Source: an uncultured Pseudomonadota bacterium
Lineage (GTDB): Bacteria > Pseudomonadota > Alphaproteobacteria > Rs-D84
Reading direction: 5' to 3'
Length of the DNA stretch: 64,000 nucleotides
Assembly: GCA_902795435.1 (NCBI GenBank)
Contig: CADBLE010000008.1
Coordinates: 28,028 to 92,027, forward strand
Position 1 is the first letter of the stretch; the number at the start of each line of letters is the position of its first letter. The translations under genes and the position numbers were made by a program. This document shows, piece after piece, positions 15,640-28,987 of this stretch. The notes beneath the pieces are model-generated. The model was not told where the DNA came from. It ran no database searches and worked only from the letters and a program-made list of their open reading frames with translations.

Positions 15640-15754
15640 CCGATTCCATTTGTCATCCCGAGGAATAAAATACAACAACCCATGTTGTTGATTTTATGAC
15701 GTCCAGAATATCTTTAAGTGTTCGGTGTTTAACCGAACCACATATTACAATTTG
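15640..15754. repeat. Intergenic repeat module, copy A (second copy at 26637-26757)
   Basis: CCGATTCCATTTGTCATCCCGAGGAATAAAATACAACAACCCATGTTGTTGATTTTATGACGT...GTTCGG..TTTAACCGAACCACATATTACAATTTG is near-identical at both loci; contains internal hairpins. Confidence 0.85.
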
Positions 15755-15813
15755 GTTTTGGATTAAACATAACACAGATAATTTATAAACATACTTTCAT
15801 TATTGGTATAACC

Positions 15814-16066: not shown

Positions 16067-17281
16067 TTACCCGTTGTTGCCACTGGTTGTTGTTTGTTCT
16101 GGTGCACTGAAACGCCAACCCTTAAATGTTTTACCCTTAATAGTTTGGGCTTTAACTGGGGTACGAACGTCAGAACCGTATGTCGCGGTTCCCGCATTAT
16201 TTGCAGATACATCTTCTGCATCTGCATTTGACCAATTAATTGTAATTGTGTTCGCTTCACAACTTGCCAAAGGATTACCAACAAACCCGAAAAATGCAGC
16301 ACGAAAACGCAAATCCGACGAATAAGTAAACGCCAGATTATCTGCACATATAACCGCACAATCTTCAGCACAACTAGATGCAGAACCAGGGTTTTGTGTA
16401 TAAACCCAAGGGGTAGATACAGATATTAAGCTTTCTCCACTTGGAGTATAGCTATCAAGCTTACAGTAGCAATATTGAGCACCAGTATTACCGGTTTCGT
16501 CAACTAATGTTTCGTATACTGTTGGATTACTCCAATTGTAACCGTCAAAATCACCATCCATAAATCCTTGTGATGTACTGCAACGTCCATGTCCTGCTAT
16601 TCTACCTTTATCACCATAATCCACAGCCCATGTATTTTTTTCTGTCATTCCCCAAACATTTGCTTGTCGTACTTTTTCACCGTTATTTCTTATAGCCGCA
16701 TTATATATAGTACTGCCAACTTTTTTTACTTCAGTATTACCAATTATATTTATCAAATCAGGTGCACCTGGTTTTAGATGCCATCCATTTTCACATGCCG
16801 TTGGTTCGCATGTATCGGTGCCGTTGCCGTAATAATCATTACCGCTGATTGCGGTTGCGTGGGCGATTGCTGTTATGGAATCACCAACATTATTTATATC
16901 GCATGCACGATAACATTGGGTATTACTGCTTGAACCGTCTGCGGAACTGCCAAAACCAGATGGGCATGTTTCTATACCCTGAGCCAAATTTTCATTATAT
17001 TGAACCGTTTCACCACCCGCACAGAAAGAACCCGCCGGACATGTTGTTATTGTTTCGGAATCTTTCGGTAAATATTTTCCCGCATTTAACAAATAATTTA
17101 TTGTTTCATATTCTGCTGTTGCGTTGACGGTACCTTCATAAACACCGTCCATATTTGTTGATGTTGCCGCGTTATCGTATGTTTTGTTTTGTTGCATTAA
17201 ACCATTTGACGGAAAATTTTCCGCCATTGCCGGTGCAACCGACATTATCAACATAGAACTTAAAAATATTTTATTTTTCAT
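16067..17281 (-). CDS. Secreted Cys-rich surface protein paralog A, with C-terminal Listeria-Bacteroides-repeat (Flg_new)-like domain
   Basis: Signal peptide MKNKIFLSSMLIMSVAPAMA. The C-terminus ITINWSNA..TATYGSDVRTPVKAQTIKGKTFKGWRF fits the Flg_new pattern (Y/T-V-x-F ... yG ... P ... GytFxGW). Paralog of 26997-28232. Confidence 0.75.
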   Translation of the reverse strand: MKNKIFLSSMLIMSVAPAMAENFPSNGLMQQNKTYDNAATSTNMDGVYEGTVNATAEYETINYLLNAGKYLPKDSETITTCPAGSFCAGGETVQYNENLAQGIETCPSGFGSSADGSSSNTQCYRACDINNVGDSITAIAHATAISGNDYYGNGTDTCEPTACENGWHLKPGAPDLINIIGNTEVKKVGSTIYNAAIRNNGEKVRQANVWGMTEKNTWAVDYGDKGRIAGHGRCSTSQGFMDGDFDGYNWSNPTVYETLVDETGNTGAQYCYCKLDSYTPSGESLISVSTPWVYTQNPGSASSCAEDCAVICADNLAFTYSSDLRFRAAFFGFVGNPLASCEANTITINWSNADAEDVSANNAGTATYGSDVRTPVKAQTIKGKTFKGWRFSAPEQTTTSGNNG

Positions 17282-17303: not shown

Positions 17304-17349
17304 AATAAAAAAACAGACAAATAACGTCATCAACGTTATTTGTCTGTTT
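17304..17349 (-). promoter_or_regulatory. Terminator-like hairpin in the 5' leader of paralog A
   Basis: Perfect 17-bp stem 17311-17327 / 17333-17349. On the minus strand it is followed by a T-run, then RBS AAAGGAAAG and the ATG. Conserved at 28257-28302. Confidence 0.6.
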
Positions 17350-17357
17350 TCAATCTT

Positions 17358-17370
17358 GTGCGAATTTCAT

Positions 17371-17376
<6 letters not shown>
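17358..17376. promoter_or_regulatory. Palindrome GTGCGAAT-TTC-ATTCGCAC upstream of paralog A (operator or RNA hairpin)
   Basis: Perfect 8-bp arms. The paralogous site 28311-28329 is GCGTGAAT-ACA-ATTCACGC, so the differences between copies are compensatory. Confidence 0.5.
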
Positions 17377-17466
<90 letters not shown>

Positions 17467-17554
17467 AAACTGCGCCTTTCACGACTTTCACTATTTTTAT
17501 TCCCCCTATCTCGATATGAATATTATACCAAAAATCGCATCTTAAAAAAAGCAC

Positions 17555-19279: not shown

Positions 19280-22200
19280 TTAGAAATTATATCTCCATTT
19301 GATACGGCCAGTATGAGATATATATTCATCACGAACATCTAAATCATAATCTAATGTCCAATCTGCGTTATAATATCTCATTGTCAAACCAACGCCAAAT
19401 TCAGCACCAAATCTGGACAATTTATCACCAGATATTGAATAAGAATTTACACCTGGCATTGTGACAACTGCAACCTGATCATCAGACATAACATCATATT
19501 TCAACAAACCATGGAATTCAGGTGCAAATGAAATATGTGTATGTTTTGTATTGAAATTGCGTGTGTATTTTCCACCCAAAGTCAATGTCATATAGTCTGT
19601 ATCTTTCAAACTGTGTTTAACACCCAGATTGTTTTTATAATCATCTGCATCTATGTGAGTATAACGCAATCCTAATTCTGGTGTTACACCATTTGCTAAA
19701 TCATACCCAGTTGCAATACGTCCACCAAATGAATGAACATCATAATCAGATTTAACACCAATACCCAATGCAGAACCAGTTTCTGAATATTGAGATATAG
19801 TATAATTCAACACTGCATTTGCATACCATTGGTTTGGTTTATATTGACCATATACAAACATTGTGTATGAATCAATTTCTGTATCACGATGTGCAGAATC
19901 AATGTCAGAATGAGAATAAGAATACCCAGTTCCCACAGTGACAACTTTGTTAAATACACCGTCCATACCGATTGCAAATCCACGTGTATAACCATCAAAA
20001 GAATCTTTTTGATTTGTATAGTTATACAAACCATTTGCCCAGAAACCCGCACCTGTTGGTTTTATATCACCACCGGCACGACCAATTGTTGGCAAAGACA
20101 TACGTGTTGCAGCCAAATTACCAACTGTTGTTTGGACAGATGTTGCAACAGATTGAACAACAGATTCTGTTTCAGGATGAACAGATTTTGTTGCATCTTC
20201 AACCGCAGCAATATCATCCTTTGAATGAGTTGCTAATTTTTCCTGCATCTTGATAGACAAATCTTTCAATTGTTCTGAATCAGATGAAGCGATATTCAGA
20301 ACTGTATTTACAGTTTCTTTTGCTGCACCTGTATCTTCAACAATTTTATCTGCTGATTTCAAAGACGCATCAAAACTTTTGCCGTCTACTGACCATGTCA
20401 AATCAAACACAGAACTGGTTATTTGATTTTTAGCATTTGCAAATACTTTGTCACCAAATATATTATATGTTCCAACCTTTTCAACCGCGACACTCAAATT
20501 TCCATCACCTTCAAAAGATTGTGTTGCAGTCAAGAAAGCGTCCCCATCAGCAAACAAATCTGCAATCAAAGTTCCATTTAATGTAATGTTATTTTGATTT
20601 ATTTTTGCACTGCCTATATTCAATGTAGAGCCATCTGCAATTGTTAAATCACCAGCACCCGCAATTCCACCGTCTATTGTTGTAGTGCCGTTTGCGATTG
20701 TTAAATCACCGACATTATAAATATCGTTTGCAGAATTTTGTGCTTTGTTTCCAGAAAATTCATTTGTTCCAGACAAAACCAAAGTTCCCGCATTATAAAT
20801 CGCCCCACCATTTGCAGATGCTGAGTTATTTGTGAATTTAACATTTGATAATGAAATGTTTCCGCCAATCTGGTCTGTTGTCCCATACGTTTCGTTGTAA
20901 ATCGCACCACCATTTAATGCAGTATTAGAATTAAATGATGTATCTGAAATACTTACAAAACCAGAATCATTTTTATCATTATGCAAAGTATTATAAATCG
21001 CACCACCAAAATTGTCCGCATGGTTTCCGATAAATTTTGTATTTGCTATATCCAATGTTGCATCTTTATTATTACCCAGGTCCACAAAACGCATAGATAT
21101 CGCACCACCATTTGTAGCCGATGTATTAGAATTGAATTCAACATTTGATAAATCGTTCGTTGATACAGACCCCATAAATATTGCGCCACCACCATTTGAT
21201 GCTAAACCGTCAACATGGTTGCCATTGAATTTTGCGTTCTTTAATACTAAATCAGAGAAAGAGCCAATCGCACCACCACCGTCTAAATCGACACCCGCAG
21301 TTGAATTATTGATAAATGTTGTGCCGTCTATGGATAATTTGTGTCCTTTGTTTATCAATGTAGCCAAATAAATTGCACCACCACCATCATTTGATGAATT
21401 CCCTTCAAAAGAGCCCCCATTTATATCAACATTTCCGCGGGCAACCATCGCGCCACCCCAATCAGCACTGTTTTCAACAAAATTTACATTTTTTAATTTC
21501 AAAACTGAATTTACATCATGCTGGGCAATTGCACCAGAATTTCCAGTCGCAGTATTTAAATGAAATGATGCGTTTTCTATTTCCAGTGTACCCGCATTAT
21601 AAATCGCACCACCCTTGGTCGCAGTGTTTTCTTTGAATGCAAAGCCAGATGTTTTATAATTTCGTGTATCTTTTATAACCAATTCGCTTTCATTATAGAT
21701 TGCACCACCCATATTCGCATCATTTTTAGAGAAAGTAGAATTATCAATCCACAATTTTGCATTGCCACCATCAGAATCTGTCCAACCTTCTACAAAAACA
21801 GCACCACCTTTGTCTGCACGATTGGAAACAAATGTTGAATCAGAAACATAGGCATAACCTTCTTTCGCTTTGCTGTTATAGAAAGAATTAAAGAACGCAC
21901 CACCACGAGTACCAGCAACATTGTTAAAAAATTGGGAATATGTAATATCAACCTTGGCACCGGCGGACGAATTTGTTCCTTTTCCTGAATAGTTTGTATC
22001 CAACCAATAATTTATTGGACGTGTTGCAATTGCTCCCCCAACCGTTCCAGATTCATTGCTGTCAAAAGAAACACGATAAACGACAGTCTGGCTTTCTGAA
22101 CCCAACATCAAAGCGCCCGCCCCATCACCCAGATTCGCATAATTTGCAGTTGCTTTATTATGTGCAAATTGTGAATTAGAAACAAGACTGTTTGGTGAAA

Positions 22201-22552
22201 ATATTGCAACGGCCCCAAAATCGCCTGCGGTATTATATACAAAATAACTGCTATCTATTGATACAGAATAATTACCAGTTTGTTTTTTAAAAGCGGTCAA
22301 ACTGTTATCATATAATGCACCTGCGGCACCACCTGTGTTATTTTTTATCTCGCTGTTTTTTATAATTAATTTATTATTAGATAAAATTGCACCACCAGTT
22401 GCAGAATTAGAAATATCTTTTATCTGAACACCATCAAAAGTATAATCTTCTTGTAAAACCTGCCGTTCATTAATTTCTGTATAATCATCCGCCATTGCAG
22501 GCAACACCAATAATGCAGGTAATATGGAAATCAATTTGAAAATTTTATTCAT
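19280..22552 (-). CDS. Pmp-type (polymorphic outer membrane protein repeat) autotransporter
   Basis: Signal peptide. At least 12 FxxN...GGAI(Y) repeat pairs, e.g. FSKNDANMGGAIYN, FTNNSASANGGAIYN. C-terminal beta-barrel ends ...RIKWRYNF. Confidence 0.85.
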   Translation of the reverse strand: MNKIFKLISILPALLVLPAMADDYTEINERQVLQEDYTFDGVQIKDISNSATGGAILSNNKLIIKNSEIKNNTGGAAGALYDNSLTAFKKQTGNYSVSIDSSYFVYNTAGDFGAVAIFSPNSLVSNSQFAHNKATANYANLGDGAGALMLGSESQTVVYRVSFDSNESGTVGGAIATRPINYWLDTNYSGKGTNSSAGAKVDITYSQFFNNVAGTRGGAFFNSFYNSKAKEGYAYVSDSTFVSNRADKGGAVFVEGWTDSDGGNAKLWIDNSTFSKNDANMGGAIYNESELVIKDTRNYKTSGFAFKENTATKGGAIYNAGTLEIENASFHLNTATGNSGAIAQHDVNSVLKLKNVNFVENSADWGGAMVARGNVDINGGSFEGNSSNDGGGAIYLATLINKGHKLSIDGTTFINNSTAGVDLDGGGAIGSFSDLVLKNAKFNGNHVDGLASNGGGAIFMGSVSTNDLSNVEFNSNTSATNGGAISMRFVDLGNNKDATLDIANTKFIGNHADNFGGAIYNTLHNDKNDSGFVSISDTSFNSNTALNGGAIYNETYGTTDQIGGNISLSNVKFTNNSASANGGAIYNAGTLVLSGTNEFSGNKAQNSANDIYNVGDLTIANGTTTIDGGIAGAGDLTIADGSTLNIGSAKINQNNITLNGTLIADLFADGDAFLTATQSFEGDGNLSVAVEKVGTYNIFGDKVFANAKNQITSSVFDLTWSVDGKSFDASLKSADKIVEDTGAAKETVNTVLNIASSDSEQLKDLSIKMQEKLATHSKDDIAAVEDATKSVHPETESVVQSVATSVQTTVGNLAATRMSLPTIGRAGGDIKPTGAGFWANGLYNYTNQKDSFDGYTRGFAIGMDGVFNKVVTVGTGYSYSHSDIDSAHRDTEIDSYTMFVYGQYKPNQWYANAVLNYTISQYSETGSALGIGVKSDYDVHSFGGRIATGYDLANGVTPELGLRYTHIDADDYKNNLGVKHSLKDTDYMTLTLGGKYTRNFNTKHTHISFAPEFHGLLKYDVMSDDQVAVVTMPGVNSYSISGDKLSRFGAEFGVGLTMRYYNADWTLDYDLDVRDEYISHTGRIKWRYNF

Positions 22553-24110: not shown

Positions 24111-24211
24111 AAATATACCTCGATATGAAATATATCATAAGACATTTTTCCCAACTATGCAAAGAAAAGTTTTGTTTAACAAAAAAACACCCACATGGGG
24201 TGTTTGAATTC

Positions 24212-24245
24212 TTGATTGGGGCAGCTGATTGTAATTCCCAACACT
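24212..24245 (-). pseudogene. tRNA-Gln 3'-half fragment (acceptor plus T-arm remnant)
   Basis: TTGATTGGGGCAGCTGATTGTAATTCCCAACACT aligns with the 3' half of the intact tRNA at 24366-24397 (TTGGTTGGGGCAGCTGGATTCGAACCAACACT). Confidence 0.6.
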
Positions 24246-24331: not shown

Positions 24332-24359
24332 AAAAATTGAACCGCCACTTCGGGCGGTT
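24332..24359 (-). terminator. Terminator immediately after tRNA-Gln
   Basis: Stem AACCGCC (24340-24346) / GGCGGTT (24353-24359); AAAAATT on the plus side gives a T-run on the minus strand. Confidence 0.55.
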
Positions 24360-24366
24360 AAATCTT

Positions 24367-24440
24367 TGGTTGGGGCAGCTGGATTCGAACCAACACTAGC
24401 GGAGTCAGAGTCCGATGTTCTACCATTAAACTATGCCCCA
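24367..24440 (-). tRNA. tRNA-Gln (anticodon CUG), CCA encoded
   Basis: Manual cloverleaf of 74 nt. Acceptor TGGGGCA/TGCCCCA, D-arm GTTT-AATGGTA-GAAC, anticodon loop CTCTGAC, T-arm GTTGG-TTCGAAT-CCAGC, discriminator A plus CCA. The U1-A72 pair is typical of bacterial tRNA-Gln. Confidence 0.9.
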
Positions 24441-26636: not shown

Positions 26637-26757
26637 CCGATTCCATTTGTCATCCCGAGGAATAAAATACAACAACCCATGTTGTTGATTTTATGACGTG
26701 GGGATCCAGAATATCTTTAAGCGTTCGGGTTTTAACCGAACCACATATTACAATTTG
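26637..26757. repeat. Intergenic repeat module, copy B (first copy at 15640-15754)
   Basis: Near-identical to copy A apart from a 6-nt insertion (GGGGAT) and a few substitutions. Confidence 0.85.
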
Positions 26758-26996: not shown

Positions 26997-28232
26997 TTAC
27001 CCGTTATTGCCGGTTGTTGTTTGTTCTGGTGCACTGAAACGCCAGCCACGGAATGTTTTACCTTTCTTGGTTGCCGCTTTGACTGGGGTTCTGACGTCGC
27101 TGCCATATGTAGCGGTTCCGGCATTGTTTGCGGATATATCCGCTGCACTTGCATCCGACCAATTAATTGTAATTGTATTCGCTTCACATGATGCCAAACC
27201 ACCAGTTCCGGTTGCAGAACCGACCAACGCAGCACGGAACGCGAGGTTGGTCGGGTCCGAGTTATTCATGCCGCTCACACAGGCTCTAGCGCAGCTGTCC
27301 GCACAATTCGACGCGCTGTTGTAGCTGTTGTAGCTGTTGTAGAACACCCAAGGGGAGAGCACCGCTTGCAAGGTTCCACCATTCGGTGTATAGCCCGTCA
27401 CATTACAATAACAATTTGATGCGCCCTCTTGTCCCGTTTCGTCTGTTAAACTGCTTACAAAATGGTCAGATTCAAATGTATTATTATTGTAAGACCATTT
27501 ATTTGCTACACCACGTGTGCTACAACGGGCCTGACCAATCAACATACCCTTGGATGAACCGTAATCTACCACCCATGTGTTATTATCGCTTATGCCATAA
27601 TAACTTTGTTCTTGATGTACAACAACTTTACTGTCTTCACTGAAAGAACCGTTGTTGTTTATAGATGCACCCGCACCGGTGCCTGTACCAATTGCGGTTG
27701 CTAATTCACTGCTACTTATTCCTGATTTCAGATGCCATCCGTTTTCACAATCTGTTGCGCCACATTGGTTATTATCACCATAATAATAGCCACCCGTTAC
27801 GCCCGCAGAATGTTCTACATCCGCCGTTGTACATGTTCTGTAACAATCGTTTTGTGAATCAGAACCCGCTGCGGATAATGCGTATATACCGTCTGTCGCG
27901 GTGGAACATGAATTTATACCCTGGTCTGCGTTTTCATTATACAATGCATTTGTTAACCCAGGGCACCAAGAACCCGCTGGACATTGTGTTCCGTTTGTTG
28001 CGTCAGAACCAGCCGCCAAATAATTACCAGCGACGATATTATACAAGATATCTGTATATTCTGCGACCGCGTTTACGGTTCCCGAATATACACCGTCCAT
28101 ATTTGTTGATGTTGCCGCATTATCGTATGTTTTGTTTTCCTGCATATATCCGTTTGATGGAAACGTTTCCGCCATTGCAGGTAACACAAACCCCATTGCA
28201 AATGCACTGGTTAAAAATATATTCTTTTTCAT
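26997..28232 (-). CDS. Secreted Cys-rich surface protein paralog B, with C-terminal Flg_new-like domain
   Basis: Signal peptide MKKNIFLTSAFAMGFVLPAMA. The N-terminal block ETFPSNGYMQENKTYDNAATSTNMDGVY and the C-terminal block ASCEANTITINWS...GKTFRGWRFSAPEQTTT are shared with 16067-17281; the core is diverged. Confidence 0.75.
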   Translation of the reverse strand: MKKNIFLTSAFAMGFVLPAMAETFPSNGYMQENKTYDNAATSTNMDGVYSGTVNAVAEYTDILYNIVAGNYLAAGSDATNGTQCPAGSWCPGLTNALYNENADQGINSCSTATDGIYALSAAGSDSQNDCYRTCTTADVEHSAGVTGGYYYGDNNQCGATDCENGWHLKSGISSSELATAIGTGTGAGASINNNGSFSEDSKVVVHQEQSYYGISDNNTWVVDYGSSKGMLIGQARCSTRGVANKWSYNNNTFESDHFVSSLTDETGQEGASNCYCNVTGYTPNGGTLQAVLSPWVFYNSYNSYNSASNCADSCARACVSGMNNSDPTNLAFRAALVGSATGTGGLASCEANTITINWSDASAADISANNAGTATYGSDVRTPVKAATKKGKTFRGWRFSAPEQTTTGNNG

Positions 28233-28256
28233 GTTTTTCCTTCCTTTGTTTGTTAA

Positions 28257-28302
28257 ATAAAAAAAACAGACAAATAACGTCATAAACGTTATTTGTCTGT
28301 TT
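28257..28302 (-). promoter_or_regulatory. Terminator-like hairpin in the 5' leader of paralog B
   Basis: 17-bp stem 28264-28280 / 28286-28302, identical in sequence to the cassette A stem; only the loop differs. Confidence 0.6.
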
Positions 28303-28310
28303 TCATATTC

Positions 28311-28329
28311 GCGTGAATACAATTCACGC
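28311..28329. promoter_or_regulatory. Palindrome GCGTGAAT-ACA-ATTCACGC upstream of paralog B
   Basis: Perfect 8-bp arms; a covarying counterpart of 17358-17376. Confidence 0.5.
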
Positions 28330-28354
28330 AATTTATACACGCAACGAAACTATC

Positions 28355-28374
28355 TGTGTGTGTGTGTGTGTGTG
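28355..28374. repeat. (TG)10 dinucleotide microsatellite upstream of paralog B
   Basis: Direct count of 10 TG units; same flanks (AACGAAACTATC...TAGAAAACT) as the (TG)15 tract at 17433-17462. Confidence 0.95.
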
Positions 28375-28388
28375 TAGAAAACTAGCAC

Positions 28389-28418
28389 AAAAAAACACCG
28401 ACAAAAAAATGTCGGTGT
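28389..28418 (-). terminator. Terminator after ssb
   Basis: Stem ACACCGAC (28395-28402) / GTCGGTGT (28411-28418) with flanking A and T runs. Confidence 0.7.
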
Positions 28419-28439
28419 TTTTTATAAAAGATGAGATCT

Positions 28440-28898
28440 TTAGAATGGAATTTCATCATCACCCATATCGACGACACCTTCTTCTGGTTTATATTCGTCG
28501 TGTGATGGTTGTGCACCACCCGATTGTTCAGAACCAGATACAGATTTTGCACCCGCCAAAATAACCATCTGGCCAGAATATGGATTCAATACAACTTCTG
28601 TTGTTCTGATATCTGCACCTTCTTGGTTTTGCCATTTACGTGTGCGCAGTGAACCTTCCAAATACAGTTTTGTACCCTTTTGCAACAAACGTTCTGCAAT
28701 ATCTACCAATGATGGGTTAAATATAACGATATTGTGCCATTCTGTTTGTTCTTTCTGTTCACCAGATTGTCTGTCGCGCCATCTTTCAGATGTTGCCAAT
28801 GAAAAAGTAACTACCTTTTGACCATTTTGGGTTTGGCGAATATTTGGTTCTTGACCGATATTACCAACCAAAATAACTTTATTTATAGAACCTGCCAT
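28440..28898 (-). CDS. ssb: Single-stranded DNA-binding protein
   Basis: OB-fold N-terminus INKVILVGNIGQEP; acidic C-terminal tip DDEIPF. Confidence 0.95.
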   Translation of the reverse strand: MAGSINKVILVGNIGQEPNIRQTQNGQKVVTFSLATSERWRDRQSGEQKEQTEWHNIVIFNPSLVDIAERLLQKGTKLYLEGSLRTRKWQNQEGADIRTTEVVLNPYSGQMVILAGAKSVSGSEQSGGAQPSHDEYKPEEGVVDMGDDEIPF

Positions 28899-28987
28899 TT
28901 TTTCTTCCTTTGTTAAATCTGTTTATATCATGGCGAATTTTTTTGATAAAAACAAGAAAAAAAGAAAGGGGTTTTTACACCCCTTTT

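Follow-up and report, generated by a model that had tools for sequence, protein, structure and literature searches.

The window (the whole 64-kb stretch of DNA that was analyzed) contains two paralogous genes on its minus strand. Paralog B (26997–28232) is an intact open reading frame that encodes a cysteine-rich protein of 411 aa with a signal peptide, and paralog A (16067–17281) encodes a protein of 404 aa that is 49.5% identical to it. They are the only members of their family within the window, and their neighbors are housekeeping genes (ssb, carD, PFOR, groEL and DUF1015) and one autotransporter gene. By inspection of the translations, the N-termini of both A and B are typical signal peptides. 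A Pfam search returned nothing for either paralog at E ≤ 0.01, and at E ≤ 10 the sole match was a sub-threshold one of Flg_new to the C-terminus of B (16.1 bits, cutoff 27). Comparison of an AlphaFold model (pLDDT 76.6) with the PDB gave no structural match at E ≤ 0.001. From their sequences, a surface location of the two proteins is plausible. Homologues were found only in uncultured Alphaproteobacteria from animal guts, many of them labelled Candidatus Enterousia, with several copies per genome. Enterousia is a member of the order Rs-D84, in which most genomes are smaller than 1 Mb (PMC12306168). Searches for exact protein matches gave no record for paralog B, P0005 or the DUF1015 neighbor, and no orthologue of paralog B was retrieved in this way. 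Inside paralog B, at positions 27315–27342, we also observed a perfect in-frame 9-nt repeat (GCTGTTGTA on the plus strand, 3.1 copies) that encodes YNSYNSYNS and could be a second, frame-preserving source of length variation.

Upstream of each paralog lies a perfect dinucleotide tract. On the plus strand, positions 28355–28374 read (TG)10 upstream of paralog B and positions 17433–17462 read (TG)15 upstream of paralog A, which correspond to (CA)10 and (CA)15 on the coding strand; TRF delimited the former as 28355–28375 (10.5 copies, 100% match). Both are tandem repeats far longer than expected by chance. In 100 dinucleotide-preserving shuffles of the window, the expected number of 12-nt TG runs was 0.00, compared with 15 matches observed, all of which fell in these two tracts, and the longest of the other dinucleotide repeats in the 64 kb has five units. 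The original prediction had described the (TG)10 tract as the counterpart of the (TG)15 tract, with identical flanks and a distance of about 120 nt from the ATG of paralog B at 28232. This description was confirmed: there are 122 nt between the tract and the ATG, which is on the minus strand, and the two loci share ACGCAACGAAACTATC, which within the window is confined to them, on one side and TAGAAAACT on the other. Past the shared flank, an alignment of the two loci showed that B diverges from A by the absence of 78 nt, as described below.

Organization of the leader in paralog A and its relatives

We examined the region between the upstream gene and paralog A on the minus strand. In the 5΄ to 3΄ direction, it comprises the terminator of the upstream gene, an extended –10 promoter element, a Shine–Dalgarno (SD) sequence, an open reading frame (ORF) beginning with GTG, the (CA)n tract, GATAGTTTCGTTGCGTG, a hairpin, an intrinsic terminator, and the SD sequence and ATG of the paralog. 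The extended –10 element (TGGTATAAT, 17522–17530) and the SD sequence GGGGGAA (17500–17506) precede a leader ORF (17336–17491) that starts with GTG at 17491, encodes MKVVKGAVFY(TH)n... and ends at a TAA (17338–17336) inside the terminator. In this ORF the (CA)n tract reads as (Thr-His)n, and the (CA)15 tract (17433–17462) lies in the long frame. A sequence of 33 nt, equal to 11 codons, is perfectly duplicated in tandem (17371–17436), and the duplication leaves the long frame open; it begins within the last CA units, immediately after or overlapping the end of the (CA)15 tract. Hairpin 1 (GTGCGAAT-GAA-ATTCGCAC, 17358–17376, –12.6 kcal/mol) is followed by the terminator (17307–17351), which has a stem of approximately 17–20 bp, a run of T7–8 and a folding energy of about –24 kcal/mol.

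The same layout was found in about 20 related Candidatus Enterousia loci in addition to A, with approximately nine codons from the GTG or ATG to a (CA)n or (GA)n tract. In a survey of the 300 nt that precede each of 58 related genes, we identified 13 tract-bearing leaders (that of A and those of 12 relatives), which belong to at least five sequence classes and have their parts in the same order. All 13 contain a purine-rich SD sequence followed by GTG or ATG, and the ORF enters the tract at one codon phase (TTC TAC ACA CAC... or CTA GAG AGA...). Four of them carry (GA)n in place of (CA)n, within an ORF initiated by ATG (e.g. MAETRRFL(ER)n). This exchange at the same position speaks for selection on repetitiveness rather than on sequence. 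At most loci, an extended –10 element (TGnTAnAAT) is located 64–68 nt upstream of the tract, and the tract is therefore transcribed and outside the promoter spacer. Between the tract and the terminator lies a hairpin with a stem of 8–10 bp; the structures of hairpin 1 and of the terminator (13–20 bp) are kept despite a lack of sequence relationship (z-scores –5.3 to –9.3), and compensatory changes distinguish hairpin 1 of A from that of B. The leader peptide showed no clear purifying selection (GGC, GCC and GAC occur at one codon, for example).

A different structured leader of approximately 200 nt, located about 240 nt upstream of the gene, was observed in many other family members (L005, L006, L008, L010–L012, L014, L018, L019, L022, L027, L028, L031–L033, L035, L036, L055, L058, L062, L067 and L070). 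Its GGTYGGRG pairs over a long range with CYCC-RACC just 5΄ of a terminator (ACCRCC..GGYGGTTTT), and AU/GC covariation was seen (11 versus 8 sequences). It matched no Rfam family at the gathering score, and is a candidate for an undescribed riboswitch-like attenuator.

Truncation of the paralog B leader

The leader of paralog B, likewise on the minus strand, retains the parts from the tract onwards. The (CA)10 tract (28355–28374) is preceded by the conserved 5΄ flank AGTTTTCTA (28375–28383), which in intact relatives holds the last leader-ORF codons (..GTT TTC TA), and is followed by the conserved 3΄ flank GATAGTTTCGTTGCGTG (28338–28354), which contains the immediate TAG (28352–28350) of one short frame. 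Farther downstream are hairpin 1 (GCGTGAAT-TGT-ATTCACGC, 28311–28329, –11.6 kcal/mol), the intrinsic terminator (28259–28304; a stem of approximately 17–20 bp with T8, –24.4 kcal/mol, z-score –8.6) and the SD region of paralog B (AAAGGAAGGAAAAAC, 28233–28247).

To the 5΄ side, exactly 78 nt are missing in comparison with A and with L090, L091 and L092, three other strains with a 100% identical SSB in which the leader at the same site downstream of ssb is complete (compared at L090:2955–3260). The missing segment consists of the promoter TGGTATAAT, the SD sequence and the first seven leader codons. The junction left by the deletion (GTGCT|AGTTTTCTA, between 28384 and 28383) shows no obvious microhomology, and the hairpin of the ssb terminator (28389–28423, –19.2 kcal/mol) directly adjoins the truncated leader. 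The ssb gene itself (28440–28898, minus strand) is the upstream neighbor and served as the anchor for locating the site in other strains. A second copy of the junction was absent among the 93 fetched loci, and the deletion rests on one assembled sequence. A scan of the minus strand from 28150 to 28950 found no σ70-like promoter, and the only in-frame start left in the B leader is a GTG in GTGCTAGTTTTC, which has no ribosome-binding site. Because the promoter, the SD sequence and the leader start are lost, paralog B would be silent at any tract length. It is thus probably locked off in this genome, and its tract would be an intact remnant of a switch.

The site downstream of ssb also differs between strains in the gene that it holds. 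The SSB and the upstream DNA are identical in L090, L091 and the window, yet different alleles of the family follow (26997–28232 in the window), and their N-termini part ways right after the signal peptide. This pattern suggests cassette replacement or recombination among paralogs. In addition, contigs often stop in or beside the leader (L001, L086, L092 and L093).

Reading frames downstream of the tract

A switch of comparable architecture has been demonstrated experimentally in Streptococcus gallolyticus, in which pil1 (and pil3) is preceded by a gene for a leader peptide whose frame is determined by GCAGA repeats (Danne et al. 2014, PMC3894217). Short peptides that end 28–39 nt or more before a stem-loop terminator give low expression, and long peptides that end in or next to the terminator give high expression, through ribosome-mediated destabilization of the stem (PMC3894217). 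We compared the leaders found here with this arrangement. An intrinsic terminator is present in B, in A and in all variants. A promoter upstream of the leader and a leader ORF that has both a start codon and a ribosome-binding site are absent from B and present in A; among the relatives, the promoter occurs in most and the leader ORF in 12.

The position of the stop codon depends on the frame in B and in all leader classes. In every class, two of the three frames stop 5–26 nt past the tract, often at once (...CA GA TAG), which leaves at least approximately 30 nt between these stops and the terminator stem. In the third frame, 18–38 codons are open before a stop, which falls between 4 nt ahead of the terminator stem and 12 nt into its 5΄ arm, or past it. 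In the B leader, for example, the stops end 5, 22 and 66 nt after the tract and the stem begins at +54, the last stop being the TAA at 28291–28289 within the 5΄ arm. The leader of the window occurs in two subtypes in which small indels swap the long frame, and both long frames end at the same TAA in CAGACAAATAACG. The long frame requires n mod 3 = 0 in GATTGTTG leaders and n mod 3 = 2 in GTATAAAT leaders, the subtype of B. With n = 10, B is in the immediate-stop frame (AGA TAG), and 11 or 8 units, for instance, would be needed for the long one.

We evaluated this arrangement by shuffling and found it weakly non-random. An open frame that reaches the terminator is common by chance (P = 0.7–0.9 per leader), the combination of a single long frame with two short ones has P of approximately 0.3 per leader, and a strict form of the pattern was found in six of nine leader classes. 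Taken alone, the frame layout is weak evidence for a switch. The argument draws its weight from the conserved promoter, SD sequence and start codon with the tract in phase, from the exchange of the repeat unit, from length polymorphism and from precedent.

Length variation among relatives

We scanned metagenome contigs for the conserved flank and a tract, and thereby obtained the same loci from other samples. The tracts range from 6 to 27 units (12–54 bp) across loci. Repeat number varied between otherwise identical sequences: L083 has 13 units and L089 has 12, with 600 nt on each side 100% identical, and L086 has 11 units and L052 has 27, with 600 nt of identical upstream DNA. A more diverged pair, L082 and L087, has 7 and 12 units, respectively. 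At the site downstream of ssb, the window has 10 units and the other strains have 13, 13 and at least 12. Length polymorphism, on which the original prediction depended, is therefore present in relatives (12 versus 13 and 11 versus 27 units in otherwise identical DNA).

Tract lengths also differ among the copies within one genome. A single metagenome-assembled genome (CAMORN01) contains five family members with 10, 11, 16, 17 and 27 units, of which one (L052, n = 27) is in its own long frame. Such differences make independent switching of family members plausible. Accordingly, the proposal that the two paralogs could be switched independently is supported at the level of the family, in which tracts of different length are attached to individual paralogs, but it probably does not apply to the present copy of B, which lacks the promoter, SD sequence and start codon.

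In L089 and L083, the repeat lies within a main ORF. At this locus (L089:6280–7239), ...GCCGCAGTTTTCTA(CA)n is located inside the ORF of a secreted protein with a Flg_new domain, ahead of the signal peptide. The ORF is in frame and intact with n = 12 and broken with n = 13, although the sequences, which come from two metagenomes, are otherwise identical over 1.2 kb; repeat number acting via the reading frame is thus directly visible in this lineage. In L082 and L087, the leader module (MKREPTYREDKRATGLKAAVFY(TH)n and the terminator) precedes an unrelated protein of 860 aa, without a signal peptide or a Pfam match. The putative switch is thus not confined to the secreted family.

A proposed leader-peptide switch and alternative explanations

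We consider a leader-peptide frame switch acting on an attenuator, with paralog A ON and paralog B silent, to be the best explanation, and hold it with moderate confidence on the basis of the sequence features and the analogy with pil1. A dinucleotide repeat prone to slippage would form part of a short leader ORF that has a promoter on one side and an intrinsic terminator on the other, and repeat length (n mod 3) would set the leader reading frame, with no graded or spacing effect. In the short frames, the ribosome would halt 5–26 nt past the tract, the terminator would form and the gene would be OFF. In the long frame, the ribosome would pass hairpin 1 and reach a stop at the 5΄ arm of the terminator or within it, which would prevent the stem, allow read-through and turn the gene ON. 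Hairpin 1 might make the polymerase pause and so couple it to the ribosome, although this is speculation and pil1 is without it. The SD sequence, the start codon and the layout indicate that the leader ORF is probably translated, whereas the assignment of the long frame to ON and of the short frames to OFF is drawn from pil1. By the same analogy, paralog A (n = 15, n mod 3 = 0, long frame) is predicted to be ON. The TG tract is real and belongs to a polymorphic repeat system carried by individual paralogs, which most likely acts not on promoter strength but on the leader frame.

The silence of B depends on the 78-nt gap. If this gap were an artefact of assembly or strain mixture, the B leader would really be intact and B would be an ordinary member of the switch that is now in an OFF frame, and a gain of one unit or a loss of two would turn it on. 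The leader is repeated at many paralog loci, the four contigs named above break right there, and the full leader is present at the same site in three other strains. However, a k-mer assembler does not normally invent a junction without supporting reads, the junction is clean, and the rest of the B leader is of the distinct subtype GTATAAAT, unlike that of L090 and L091; because of this difference in subtype, B is not a simple collapse of the L090 and L091 sequences. An artefact is therefore rather unlikely in our estimation. A role for the repeat in its own right was weighed against a passive one as well. The tract could be a neutral microsatellite that was carried along by duplication of the cassette, with the leader ORF as a coincidence, which would agree with the statistical weakness of the frame pattern and with the B tract, which very probably has no current effect. 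Such neutrality would hardly be expected to maintain a tract of 6–27 units at the same position despite flanks that have diverged beyond recognition and even a changed unit; moreover, there are no other long dinucleotide repeats in the 64 kb, and the same module directly gates the main ORF in L089 and L083. We accordingly give the neutral explanation little credence.

Two further explanations would assign the effect of tract length to a level other than translation of the leader. Textbook examples of intergenic repeats most commonly act on promoter spacing, and repeat length might alter the –35/–10 spacing or the geometry of a promoter of the paralog gene. The B subtype does have a TATAAA 17 nt past the tract, whose end (CACACA) is weakly –35-like. 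Nevertheless, this –35-like end would be at a fixed distance for any n, the conserved promoter is 64–68 nt upstream of the tract, tracts of 12–54 bp do not fit a spacer of 16–18 bp, and the scan found no minus-strand promoter around the tract; the repeat neither lies between nor overlaps –35 and –10 elements, and a transcript from there would still meet the terminator, without the leader ORF. We rejected this role on the position of the promoter and the tract lengths of 12–54 bp, and regard it as very improbable. The transcribed tract might instead act as RNA without being translated, through length-graded folding of the 5΄-UTR, processing or protein binding, in the manner of hmw1A. The tract is downstream of the promoter and hence transcribed, and there is precedent for simple sequence repeats acting via 5΄-UTR structure (PMC12721329). 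Against this, folds of the full leader, for both CA and GA types, predict an essentially unpaired tract, and no conserved complementary GU- or UC-rich arm was found; an hmw-like hairpin involving the tract was rejected on this prediction. The exchange of (CA) for (GA) also speaks against a sequence-specific binding site, and the conserved upstream SD sequence and start codon and the stops adjacent to the tract would be left unexplained. An effect at the RNA level thus seems improbable to us.

A broader reading, which we regard as doubtful, is that Enterousia, with a genome smaller than 1 Mb, uses modular antigenic variation. A portable cassette, consisting of an insulating terminator, a promoter, a leader ORF with the dinucleotide repeat, a pause-like hairpin and a terminator, would be carried by several paralogs of a lineage-specific secreted protein in each genome, typically one or a few of which would be ON at once. 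Promoterless copies such as B might then be silent donors or recipients in recombination, and fixed sites such as that at ssb might hold strain-specific alleles.

Comparison with known systems

The leader-peptide switch proposed here resembles that of pil1 in the presence and order of a promoter, a leader ORF bearing the repeat, an intrinsic terminator and a gene for a surface or secreted product, and in that repeat number places the leader stop either far upstream of the terminator or within or at it. The two differ in several respects. The unit is the dinucleotide (CA) or (GA) in Enterousia and the pentanucleotide GCAGA in pil1; one of the three frames is long and two are short in Enterousia, whereas pil1 has a short in-frame peptide and two long out-of-frame peptides. 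Enterousia also has an additional conserved hairpin between the repeat and the terminator and several paralogs per genome, and its system is known here from sequence.

In the outer membrane protein (OMP) genes of Helicobacter pylori (CT repeats) and the opa genes of Neisseria (CTCTT), the repeat is located in the region encoding the signal peptide. These are likewise multi-copy exported families in which each copy has its own repeat and is switched independently through the reading frame. In contrast to these repeats within the structural gene, the Enterousia tract is in a leader ORF 122 nt upstream and would affect termination. In B, stops in all frames and the terminator lie between the tract and the ATG; L089 and L083 do carry an in-gene repeat. 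A third comparison is the trp operon of Escherichia coli, where the position of the ribosome on the leader ORF decides whether the downstream terminator forms; trp-type attenuation is also discussed in PMC3894217. The proposed logic of a ribosome on a leader is the same, and hairpin 1 could correspond to a pause hairpin. Unlike trp, however, the Enterousia leaders have no regulatory codon run and no obvious antiterminator, and control would be by heritable frameshift rather than by the supply of charged tRNA. Finally, the heptamer repeat in the 5΄-UTR of Haemophilus influenzae hmw1A forms a hairpin that is cleaved by RNase III, with a graded effect (PMC12721329). As in the leader of that adhesin gene, the Enterousia repeat is transcribed in the 5΄ leader and its length would affect expression; in hmw1A the repeat pairs in a long hairpin, whereas the Enterousia tract is predicted to be unpaired and is embedded in an ORF.

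A literature search on phase variation of leader peptides combined with attenuation turned up the pili of S. gallolyticus only, and none of the sampled titles and abstracts on Enterousia dealt with phase variation. If the leader-peptide switch is real, attenuation-coupled phase variation of a leader would be a recurrent solution that is also found in a distant, genome-reduced gut alphaproteobacterium. The value of n mod 3 would then give the predicted ON or OFF state of each paralog straight from metagenomes, and surface variation of an unculturable symbiont would become testable with existing read data. For annotation, these leaders are a warning that intergenic microsatellites may sit in unannotated leader ORFs, and paralog B that an intact-looking gene can be cut off from its switch.

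Other features of the region

Several further elements were observed around the paralogs. An element of approximately 121 nt lies 3΄ of both (15640–15760 and 26637–26757), between convergent genes, and 63 nt of it are 100% identical between the two copies. It contains two small hairpins and, among the fetched loci, occurred only in L001, which is another assembly of the same strain. The autotransporter gene between A and B (19280–22552, minus strand) encodes 1090 aa with Chlamydia PMP repeats, and its signal-peptide region has a 23-nt stretch in common with the paralogs. The Rfam search of the window matched tRNA-Gln alone (24367–24440, minus strand). Near this gene, a 42-nt direct repeat with 76% identity (24186–24227 and 24340–24381) overlaps the 3΄ end of the tRNA and its downstream hairpin, and could be the leftover of a duplication of the tRNA end.
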